Positions 24,229 through 26,333 of a stretch of DNA of 64,000 nt are shown here, one piece after another. Where the stretch lies: positions 90,709 to 154,708 of the forward strand of contig DASYWW010000046.1 in the NCBI GenBank assembly GCA_035935655.1. The letters run 5' to 3'. The notes below the pieces were generated by a model. That model did no database searches, was not told the DNA's origin, and saw nothing but the letters and a program-made list of their open reading frames with translations. The first letter of the stretch is position 1. Each line of letters begins with the position of its first letter. The translations under genes and the position numbers were made by a program. The stretch is from Candidatus Bathyarchaeia archaeon (GTDB taxonomy: Archaea; Thermoproteota; Bathyarchaeia; 40CM-2-53-6).

Positions 24229-25005
24229 TTGCGCAAGATTGCTGAGGGGGTTTACAGGGTTCCTGCTCGAGCGGCCAACACCTACCTTGTTGAGGCTCCA
24301 AAAGGTCTCGTGTTAGTGGACAGCGGTCTGCCCGGGAGCGAGAAGGGAATTCTCAAGGCCGTCGCAAAACTCGGAAGGAAACCTTCGGACCTGAAGCTTG
24401 TACTGTTGACTCATCGGCACCTGGACCATATCGGGAGTGCGGCTGCTTTGAAAAAACAGACAGGAGCGAAGCTGGCTTCTCATCCCTTTGAGAAGCCATA
24501 CGCGGCTGGGACTCTCGTGATAACGGCTCCGAGTGCTTGGAGCTTCTATGGAAGAATGGTGAGAAGGCTTACAACGCTTGAATATTGGTCGTTGAAGCTT
24601 TTTCGGATTATCAAGTTTCATACGACTAAGGTGGATCTCGCTGCGGACGAAGAATTTGTGTTGGAAGAAGTGGGTTTGGATGGGTCTGTGATCTGGACGC
24701 CTGGACATACGAAGGGGTCGGTTACGCTGTTTCTTAACCAGCCAAGTGTAGCCATTGTCGGGGATCTCGTTAGAGCTCGTCGTGGCCGGCTTGTGGAGCC
24801 GTTGTTAATGGAGAGTATTCCTCAGACCGGGGCGAGCATTAGACGGGTCTTGGATCTGGGTCCAGAGATTATCTGTCCGGGGCATGGCAAGCCGCTTCCG
24901 GCGTCCAAGGTCAAGGTCAAAGCGCGTGCGGTAAAGCCTGTGGCCGTAGCGAAGAAAAAGGAAGAGGAGGAAGACTTGGAGGAGCTAGCGTCTGGCCTTT
25001 TCTAG
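24229..25005 (+). CDS. MBL-fold metallo-hydrolase
   Basis: 'LTHRHLDHIG' HxHxDH motif. TTG start. The low-complexity acidic C-tail is encoded antisense to the SOD 3-prime fragment. Confidence 0.8.
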   Translation: MRKIAEGVYRVPARAANTYLVEAPKGLVLVDSGLPGSEKGILKAVAKLGRKPSDLKLVLLTHRHLDHIGSAAALKKQTGAKLASHPFEKPYAAGTLVITAPSAWSFYGRMVRRLTTLEYWSLKLFRIIKFHTTKVDLAADEEFVLEEVGLDGSVIWTPGHTKGSVTLFLNQPSVAIVGDLVRARRGRLVEPLLMESIPQTGASIRRVLDLGPEIICPGHGKPLPASKVKVKARAVKPVAVAKKKEEEEDLEELASGLF

Positions 25006-25080
25006 CCGCTTCTCGACATCGTCCCAGCTGACAACGGTCAGCCGAGCATGAATGTAGTTCGCCAGTCGTTCTTCTTTAGG
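24985..25080 (-). pseudogene. Orphan 3-prime fragment of a superoxide dismutase gene (last ~25 codons plus stop)
   Basis: The minus-strand translation '...[24 protein letters not shown]' matches the intact SOD C-terminus '...[24 protein letters not shown]' at 25725..25800. There are many synonymous differences. Confidence 0.65.
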
Positions 25081-25157
25081 TCACCCAGGCGTATAATTCT
25101 GATAGATCGAGTCGAATAGTTTCGTCGACCAGTGCGAGAAAAGACGATCTCAAGCAA

Positions 25158-25679
25158 ATGGGTCCATTCTGTAACAGGGACATGCAGAAGTCAGCGGTCT
25201 TCAGCATTCGTGCTCGAAAGAAGAAAATTCAAGGTCAGGTAACACGAGCTCTTCGTTGCGGAGAGGACCGAGCTTGGTTGGCGGGAATCATAGAGGGCGA
25301 GGGGTCAGTTCTCTGGGCAAGTTACGGGAATGACGAGTGGCGTGCGAAGATTAGCATCATAATGAATGATCGAGCGGTGATTGCATATGCGGCGAGACTG
25401 ATGGAAGCAACTCCTTTCTACGACAAGAAGAGGAAACGTTGGCATACTTACGCGGAAGGATTCCGAGCAGTCCAAGTAGCCAAACTAACTGGTCCTCACA
25501 TGCACGGTCAGAAGAAGGAGCTAGCACTCGCTTTGGTTACCGCGGGACACGTTTTCAGGGGACGAGAGCCGCCGTGGCACTTCAGATTGGCCTATGACAA
25601 TGACCTTCAGAAGAATGTTAGAACTCTGGAAATGTCTCCGGCTTCTAGAATTGAAGTTGCAGAATCTCTGGCGCCTTGA
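25158..25679 (+). CDS. Free-standing LAGLIDADG-family homing endonuclease (single-motif type)
   Basis: The 'LAGIIEGEGSV' motif is followed by a basic ~150 aa body. It lies between the orphan SOD fragment and the intact sod gene, on the opposite strand to sod. Confidence 0.6.
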   Translation: MGPFCNRDMQKSAVFSIRARKKKIQGQVTRALRCGEDRAWLAGIIEGEGSVLWASYGNDEWRAKISIIMNDRAVIAYAARLMEATPFYDKKRKRWHTYAEGFRAVQVAKLTGPHMHGQKKELALALVTAGHVFRGREPPWHFRLAYDNDLQKNVRTLEMSPASRIEVAESLAP

Positions 25680-25724
25680 AGAGGACAAAAATGAAAAAGG
25701 GTTCGAGTTTGGGGGGGCGCGCGT

Positions 25725-26333
25725 CTATCGTCTGGCTTTTTCAAGACGCTTTTCGACGTCGTCCCAATTGACGACGTTCCACCAAGCGTCGACATATGCG
25801 GCTCTATCATTTCGGTATTGCAAGTAGTATGCGTGTTCCCAGACGTCGAGGACGAGTATTGGGACTACTCCTTGTACCGTTAGGTCGTTGTGTTTCTCGG
25901 CCTGGAGCGTGATCAATTGCTGGGTCCACGGTTCGTATGCTAGGACAGCCCAGCCGCTTCCTTCAACCTGTTTGGCGGCGGTGCCGAATTGTTCTTTGAA
26001 CGATTCCCACTTGCCAAAGTCAGTGTTGATCTGGTCTGCTATCTTGCCGCCTGGTTTTCCTCCAGCGTTCGATTTCATGTTGGGCCAGAAAGTGCTATGC
26101 ATTGTGTGGCCTGAACCGTGGAAGGCGAGGTCTCGCTCGATTGCTTTGATGTCGACGCCGGCGAACCCGGTCTCGCGCGCCTTCTGCAGCTTGTCCAGGG
26201 CGGCGTTTGCGCCGTTTACATAAGCGAGATGGTGTTTGTCATGATGTAACCGCATGATCTCCTCGCTTATTGTCGGGACGAGGGCGTTGTACGCGTAAGG
26301 AAGGTCAGGTAGCTTGTACCGATGATGTGGCAT
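25725..26333 (-). CDS. sod: Fe/Mn superoxide dismutase
   Basis: 'HHDKHH', 'GSGW', 'DVWEHAYY' metal-ligand motifs across 202 aa. Confidence 0.9.
   Translation of the reverse strand: [202 protein letters not shown]

Follow-up and report, generated by a model that had tools for sequence, protein, structure and literature searches.

Free-standing homing endonuclease genes are generally intergenic, and entry into a coding sequence is thought to need an intron or an intein (PMC13619312). In fungal mitochondria, however, elements known as mORFs carry a foreign C-terminus for the gene that they occupy, as described for atp6 of Allomyces macrogynus, atp6, atp9, cox2 and nad3 of Glomus sp., atp9 of Rhizopus and cox2 of Mortierella, and similar C-terminal duplications affect cob and atp6 of Endoconidiophora resinifera (PMC3630166, PMC6279837). 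Here we describe a locus of related design from Candidatus Bathyarchaeia archaeon, a soil archaeon (GCA_035935655.1, contig DASYWW010000046.1), in which a 741-bp cassette lies in the 3' part of sod, the gene for an Fe/Mn superoxide dismutase (SOD), next to a gene for a metallo-beta-lactamase-fold hydrolase (MBL). The window, that is, the whole stretch analysed, comprises 64,000 nt (positions 90,709-154,708 of the contig); coordinates given below are window positions, and L001 and similar labels denote related Bathyarchaeia contigs or genome loci used for comparison. Sequence comparison makes it likely that the region is a homing cassette, active or very recently so, in which a free-standing LAGLIDADG endonuclease gene invades sod while carrying a replacement 29-codon gene end. 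With less assurance, we also lean towards the broader view of an active homing cycle without intron or intein in archaeal chromosomes, which would be an apparently undescribed prokaryotic counterpart of the mitochondrial mORFs; neither intron nor intein would be needed, since a substitute for the last 29 sod codons comes with the cassette.

The cassette contains the upstream region of the endonuclease gene, the gene itself, a spacer to which the role of sod terminator is ascribed, and the replacement sod 3' end (Table 1), and the only open reading frame (ORF) of the insert with detectable homology or conservation is the one for the LAGLIDADG protein. The original observation is borne out by this layout: the intact SOD gene, recognised by both of its Pfam domains, the opposite-strand ORF of 173 amino acids with the motif WLAGIIEGEGS, the cassette of about 0.7 kb made of endonuclease gene and replacement sod end, and the second, antisense sod 3' end are all present, the last of these being refined to 89 nt, which corresponds to 29 codons minus 1 nt. 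The MBL gene overlaps this displaced tail, as had been proposed, and its last 21 nt (ELASGLF and stop, in a protein ending ...EELASGLF) are antisense to the end of the tail.

Compared with the mORFs, the sod cassette likewise places an endonuclease ORF (in mORFs often of the LAGLIDADG type) in the 3' part of a housekeeping gene, and in both cases the element-borne upstream C-terminus is in use, while the native one lies displaced further downstream and most resembles that of element-free relatives (PMC3630166). In both, moreover, amino acids are kept while the DNA has diverged, and horizontal transfer is inferred. The sod cassette differs in residing in an archaeal chromosome and not in an organelle, in having an opposite-strand endonuclease gene with its own upstream region, where mORFs are usually in phase or co-transcribed, in its small single-motif enzyme and its sod target, and in that empty, occupied, degenerate and deleted states coexist in natural populations. 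It works like an mORF, yet it is a distinct variant.

Another described system is the 'intronless homing' of free-standing endonucleases in T4-like phages and cyanophages, such as Seg, Mob and F-CphI (PMC2988022, PMC2790892, PMC6083498). These phage systems resemble the sod cassette in being stand-alone genes without intron or intein and, as proposed for the cassette, in spreading by double-strand-break repair with co-conversion of flanking markers and in having an occupied allele that a site difference protects. Their enzymes, however, belong to the GIY-YIG, HNH or Endo VII-like types, their genes are intergenic and entail no duplication of a gene end, and they are transferred in mixed infections. 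To our knowledge, the archaeal LAGLIDADG enzymes described so far reside in rRNA introns (I-DmoI, I-Tsp061I, I-Vdi141I) or in inteins (PI-PfuI). They have in common with the sod cassette their archaeal hosts and target sites in highly conserved gene segments; the cassette, unlike them, has no splicing element and owes its harmlessness to the replacement gene end, and the sequence similarity between the two groups of enzymes is too low for direct detection. The literature searched, with incomplete coverage, yielded no archaeal or bacterial chromosomal precedent and no case involving sod. Gene-end replacement in an archaeal chromosome would be a third route into coding sequence and would break the general rule stated above.

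Twelve related loci, found by a SOD scan of genomes and an MBL scan of metagenomes, are without the ORF: L010, L098, L102, L104-L107, L109, L112 and the more distant L011, which are endonuclease-free alleles of the kind that the original prediction had anticipated, together with L099 and L100. In these loci the MBL and sod 3' ends overlap convergently, and in L010 the MBL end (...EELTSGLF and stop) is antisense to the final codons of the functional sod gene, so that the fragment overlapped by MBL in the window is identified as the original sod end. More than 15 independent contigs, taken from JGI, ENA, NCBI and Logan assemblies, show the occupied layout, which comprises about five lineages, namely the window group, L115 (GCA_040961615.1), L007 (GCA_030157145.1), L008 and L114, whose endonuclease proteins are 55-95% identical to that of the window. 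Most sampled relatives have no endonuclease gene, and three JGI samples (3300026296, 3300026297, 3300026298) contain both occupied and empty contigs.

The insertion is located between the codons TAC and AAG of ...YYLQY/KNDR..., five codons after the DVWEHAYY motif (the slash marks the insertion point, here and in the allele sequences below). All K-type endonuclease-free alleles and all outgroups read ...CAA TAC/AAG AAC GAC CGC... (YKNDR), a site that has the form ...CACGCCTACTACCTACAATACAAGAACGACCGCGCGGCCTATGTAGAC... in L104 and L010 and is common to outgroup Bathyarchaeia and Nitrososphaerales; the displaced fragments, too, start at AAG AA(C/T). All occupied alleles read ...CAA TAY/CGA AAT GAY AGR... 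(YRNDR). The first 12 nt of the new tail are recoded at 6 positions relative to the native sequence, with K to R as the only change in the protein, and this recoding coincides precisely with the insertion point, where a role in protection from cleavage would place it. In 80 species-representative SOD loci (L009-L088), YRNDR is found a single time among the motif matches, namely in the occupied L009. The most distant occupied lineages (L008, 2903..3711; L114, 1..967) have different neighbours, and their sod still reads TAC/CGA AAT GAC AGR.

The displaced fragment of the window matches the real sod tail at 37 of 45 nt and 47 of 60 nt, with one 1-nt deletion, and tblastn against a local set (window 22001..29000 and L001-L008) gives E=4e-8 for the fragment in the window and E=2e-12 for the less decayed copy in L001. 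The claim that the two tails differ at most synonymous sites was overstated, in that 6 of the 13 conserved codons differ, but these differences are indeed all synonymous. Decay is concentrated in the half nearest the cassette, and across loci this proximal part is full of replacements and stops and has a frameshift. At the ten positions that separate new from K-type tails, the fragments show the old state at eight and the new state at none (the other two are mostly uninformative), in agreement with the proposal that the fragment is the native sod end. The distal 16 codons contain 11 synonymous and 2 non-synonymous variants, against a neutral expectation of 21% synonymous (p=1.6e-6). Since this variation is mostly synonymous, it must have arisen in functional sod genes, and the right-hand arm is therefore replenished again and again from empty alleles. 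As an alternative cause of the intact-looking distal fragment, gene conversion between the two tails was considered and rejected, the synonymous codons being consistently different in all lineages.

A pair of haplotypes, L097 and L095, points to a recent event. Their 492-nt endonuclease genes are identical, and elsewhere they differ by three substitutions and one 3-nt insertion or deletion (indel) in about 800 aligned nt, except in a 30-nt patch of the proximal fragment, which is decayed in L095 as in the rest of its clade and is intact sod sequence in L097, with only synonymous differences from K-type alleles. Such a patch is as expected from entry of the cassette into a conspecific empty allele or from conversion by such an allele, and either event may have produced it. 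In L115 the displaced tail is nearly intact, with one frameshift (second part DDAEKRLDKARR and stop), and L114 has a short remnant of it (...PDVKKRFDKAKR and stop). In L008, where topoisomerase IB takes the place of MBL upstream, no displaced tail is recognisable, and it has been either lost or fully decayed.

Trees of PfkB, MBL and the sod body agree with one another, and occupied and empty alleles are interleaved in them (L089 with, L099 without; L007 with, L011 without). These host-gene trees contain an occupied clade (L001, L095, L101), an empty clade (L010, L098, L102, L104), a mixed clade with the occupied L089, the endonuclease-free but recoded L099 and L100 and the empty L107, the window on its own, and a sister pair in which L007 is occupied and L011 empty. 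In contrast, the 90-nt tail gives a tree that groups by endonuclease state and not by host. Synonymous divergence (dS; Table 2) of the new tail is 0.12-0.54 to other occupied alleles, compared with 1.65 or saturation to K-type endonuclease-free alleles; for the endonuclease-free sisters this tail divergence stands against flank values of 0.17-0.41, and with the tail tree it upholds the view that the current sod tail is linked to the cassette and foreign. For the closely related group, and only there, cassette dS of 0.12-0.5 compared with flank dS of 0.6-1.5 makes the cassette 3-6 times younger than its surroundings, a ratio that is approximate, as flank values near 1 are close to saturation. 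Between the window and L089, mismatches fall to 1-3 per 60 nt from about nt 480 of sod onward, which is consistent with a short co-conversion tract; the chimeric tails of L099 and L100, described below, and the fragment patch that sets L097 apart from L095 are likewise counted as signs of co-conversion.

Table 2. Synonymous divergence (dS) between pairs of loci
Pair	PfkB	MBL	sod body	Tail	Endonuclease
Window vs L089	1.07	1.10	0.63	0.19 (new tail)	0.17
Window vs L001	1.50	1.04	0.47	0.44 (new tail)	0.33
L001 vs L095	0.62	0.57	0.44	0.12 (new tail)	0.16
L089 vs L099 (sisters)	0.17	0.17	0.47	1.65	
L007 vs L011 (sisters)	0.35	0.41	0.50	saturated	

LAGLIDADG enzymes cleave site-specifically, leaving 4-nt 3' overhangs, and those with a single motif work as homodimers whose pseudo-palindromic sites span about 22 bp. 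In the ORF of the cassette, the motif WLAGIIEGEGS is kept with its acidic residues in every full-length homologue. All homologues share the MQKSA start at the second ATG, and the product therefore probably has 165 amino acids, a length in which a single motif indicates the homodimeric type. An AlphaFold (AF2) model built from a 17-sequence family alignment shows the order alpha-beta-beta-alpha-beta-beta-alpha, and the best 50 PDB matches of this model in Foldseek are all LAGLIDADG proteins. An exhaustive family-profile search retrieves 189 proteins at E<=1e-3, many of them two-domain proteins of about 300 amino acids, and in distant matches the matched stretch coincides with Pfam LAGLIDADG_1 or LAGLIDADG_3. 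From the model and the profile search, the ORF product is assigned to the LAGLIDADG fold, within which it represents a divergent subfamily.

This family is small, with about 17 clusters among 5.8 billion proteins; a profile search of a clustered protein database returned no additional sod-independent members, and a scan of IMG/VR viral contigs, made with a viral vector in mind, found no relative. In every retrieved contig the close homologues are adjacent to sod, with the endonuclease gene convergent with it. The upstream neighbour of the endonuclease gene is MBL in the window group, L007 and L115 and topoisomerase IB in L008, and in L114 NifU lies beyond sod. Intact copies of the gene show ratios of non-synonymous to synonymous divergence (dN/dS) of 0.08-0.27, and thus purifying selection. 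In L115 the endonuclease ORF (873..1454) is without the usual stop, gains about 30 extra residues and overlaps the sod end in antisense by 47 nt.

Degenerate and deleted states are found as well. L101, L117 and L118, from three samples, have the same +1, -3 and +1 indels in the endonuclease gene, and L116 has independent -1 and +1 indels, which makes two frameshift lineages in total. L099 and L100 are without the gene but keep CGA AAT, and at the ten diagnostic sites their tails read NNNNN/OOOOO, that is, five new states followed by five old ones, with the switch inside the invariant stretch TGG TGG AAC GTC GTC. Their 5' halves match two different cassette subtypes, one L094-like (44/45) and the other window-like (43/45). 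The explanation that fits these alleles best is either a deletion between the direct tail repeats or a break repair in which the recoded site alone was copied. The degeneration and loss stages of a homing cycle are thus both seen, in two frameshift lineages and two independent endonuclease-free recoded alleles.

In the mechanism that we propose, the enzyme would recognise an endonuclease-free sod gene and introduce a double-strand break at ...TAC TAC YTA CAA TAC/AAG AAC GAC CGC GCN GCC..., both the cleavage and the exact target being inferred. The break would be repaired by homologous recombination with an occupied allele, with the sod body as left arm and the displaced tail and MBL gene as right arm, and this repair would copy the 741-bp cassette into sod. 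The gene would stay whole, its body now joined to the new tail and to the terminator that comes with it, while the native tail would be pushed 0.74 kb downstream and then decay. Through the recoded site (AAG AAC GAC CGC to CGA AAT GAY AGR), occupied alleles would presumably be immune. Later, the endonuclease gene could acquire frameshifts, and recombination between the direct tail repeats could delete it, leaving an endonuclease-free recoded allele. The cycle would further require a route for DNA between cells.

Several observations weigh against a homing cassette of this kind. The LAGLIDADG identity claimed in the original prediction holds through the Foldseek and profile searches, but in Pfam the ORF remains sub-threshold (12.4 bits for LAGLIDADG_3, E=0.2, with the cut-off at 22.5) and does not attain the gathering score of PF00961 or PF14528; PDB sequences gave no relevant match by phmmer or with the family profile, and the AlphaFold model has a predicted local distance difference test score (pLDDT) of 59, which is moderate confidence. 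A homodimeric enzyme should prefer a pseudo-palindromic target, and the insertion point shows no such symmetry; the best, 7 of 11 pairs centred 12 nt downstream of the insertion (AGAACGACCGC/GCGGCCTATGT), is not significant, and this CCGCGCGG-centred segment falls on the stretch in which the new tail is recoded and the fragments have decayed most. The 'new' tails of L007, L114 and L115 encode lineage-typical amino acids, so that in those lineages the cassette would mostly have co-diverged with its hosts or the tail would have recombined locally. The case for transfer is confined to the closely related group. Moreover, the cassette could travel passively when strains exchange DNA by ordinary homologous recombination.

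Some of these points would fit the main alternative, a protein that no longer cuts, domesticated as a WhiA-like DNA-binding regulator or a sod-linked factor, in an old, vertically inherited insertion shuffled by ordinary recombination. Strong purifying selection on the ORF, an endonuclease protein divergence that roughly tracks that of MBL between distant lineages (about 86-87% vs 88%; 65-70% vs 69%) and the lineage-typical tails of L007, L114 and L115 are what this alternative would predict, and yet it is unlikely: cassette dS is 3-6 times below that of the flanks, with an incongruent topology, the L097 haplotype has a fresh, undecayed fragment, and the gene is absent from most sampled relatives. 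Frameshifted copies in several samples are, in addition, unexpected for a gene that benefits its host, the recoding sits where cleavage protection would require it, and acidic residues are retained at the catalytic positions. Were the occupied arrangement instead ancestral, with every endonuclease-free allele derived by deletion and no invasion at all, the junctions would have to be regenerated from the repeats. This is very improbable, because the new tail gives CGA AAT at the junction, and K-type AAG AAC GAC CGC, common to outgroup Bathyarchaeia and Nitrososphaerales, cannot be regenerated by repeat deletion; the decayed fragments, with their stops and frameshifts, are unable to restore a working sod gene, and the cassette is younger than its flanks, even though the two tails are direct repeats able to mediate deletion and L099 and L100, with their chimeric tails, are products of deletion or conversion.

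There is scarcely any probability that the locus is an artefact of chance fragment similarity or of chimeric metagenome assembly. With its 89 nt, the window fragment is short, conservation is poor over half of it, and many of the related contigs are short metagenome assemblies; nevertheless the same layout is found in the independent contigs of four sources (JGI, ENA, NCBI and Logan), the fragments of relatives are better preserved (tblastn E=2e-12) and collinear with the empty-site allele, and the L097 junction cannot be produced by switching along k-mer paths shared with other haplotypes. Least credible of all is an integrative element that depends on an integrase and, like those directed at tRNA genes, rebuilds the 3' end of the gene it enters: the 741-bp insert encodes no integrase or recombinase, its only ORF with homology or conservation being the LAGLIDADG one, and in place of att-like identical repeats there are two tails that are about 80% identical and consistently different, although the duplicated target 3' end, with its functional copy supplied by the insert, speaks for such an element. 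Integrase element, chance match and assembly chimera are rejected on these grounds. A missing LAGLIDADG fold, an identical arrangement in all relatives and chance similarity, which the original prediction had named as ways in which it could be wrong, are all excluded.

If the homing cassette is what it appears to be, it would provide direct evidence that uncultivated soil Bathyarchaeia are still exchanging DNA and recombining it homologously, and it would mark such exchange between species-level lineages. The whole life cycle is represented in public soil metagenomes, with susceptible alleles as well as freshly invaded, occupied, degenerating and deleted-but-recoded ones, which makes the homing-cycle model testable in a natural prokaryotic population. 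Additionally, the endonuclease would be a new small meganuclease of 165 amino acids, of the homodimer type and with an inferable candidate target, that may serve as a tool.

Table 1. Features of the sod locus in the window
Feature	Position	Strand	Basis or content
MBL, metallo-beta-lactamase-fold hydrolase gene, left flank	24229..25005	+	Pfam Lactamase_B E=1e-32
Displaced native sod 3' end, pseudogene fragment, 89 nt	24985..25073	-	KND codons AAG AAC GAC first, stop last
Inserted cassette, 741 bp	25074..25814	.	bounds from comparison of occupied with empty alleles
35-nt block 5' of the endonuclease gene	25112..25146	+	upstream-region alignment; conserved among close occupied loci
Single-motif LAGLIDADG endonuclease gene	25182..25679	+	165 amino acids from MQKSA start; ORF open from ATG 25158
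LAGIIEGEG motif	25278..25304	+	inside the endonuclease gene
Spacer between convergent stops, 45 nt	25680..25724	.	sod-strand sequence ...CCCTTTTTCATTTTTG
Replacement ('new') sod 3' end, 29 codons + stop	25725..25814	-	first codons CGA AAT GAT AGA (RNDR)
Resident sod body	25815..26333	-	Pfam; ends with metal-ligand motif DVWEHAYY, then LQY, directly before the insertion point
sod, whole gene	25725..26333	-	Fe/Mn superoxide dismutase, 202 amino acids; Pfam Sod_Fe_N E=8e-29, Sod_Fe_C E=4e-37

Oligo-T runs are typical archaeal terminators, and those of the spacer, read on the sod strand, are likely to form the sod terminator. The conserved 35-nt block upstream of the endonuclease gene is a candidate promoter or regulatory region.

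Across the whole window, neither tRNA genes (ARAGORN) nor Rfam families at the gathering threshold were detected. A second duplicated gene end lies at 51306..53253, where the last ~177 nt (51942..52118) of a gene for an HTH_10/HVO_A0563_N regulator recur at 53071..53247 in a copy that is 82% identical and has its own stop. Between the two copies there is no recognisable endonuclease; an opposite-strand ORF of 300 amino acids (52137..53039) encodes a Cupin_2 domain preceded by 150 N-terminal residues without a Pfam match, and the topology is as in the sod cassette. Upstream of sod, on the side that does not face the cassette, an ORF (26660..27070) encodes 136 amino acids without a Pfam match; its position is conserved in L001-L006, with called lengths of 126-144 amino acids. 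On the other side, the Lys/Glu-rich C-terminal tail of MBL (KKKEEEEDLEEL; window 24940..24984 and the same place in L089, L095 and L097) varies in length in 3-nt steps, even between haplotypes that are otherwise near-identical, which suggests slippage in the GAA/GAG run.

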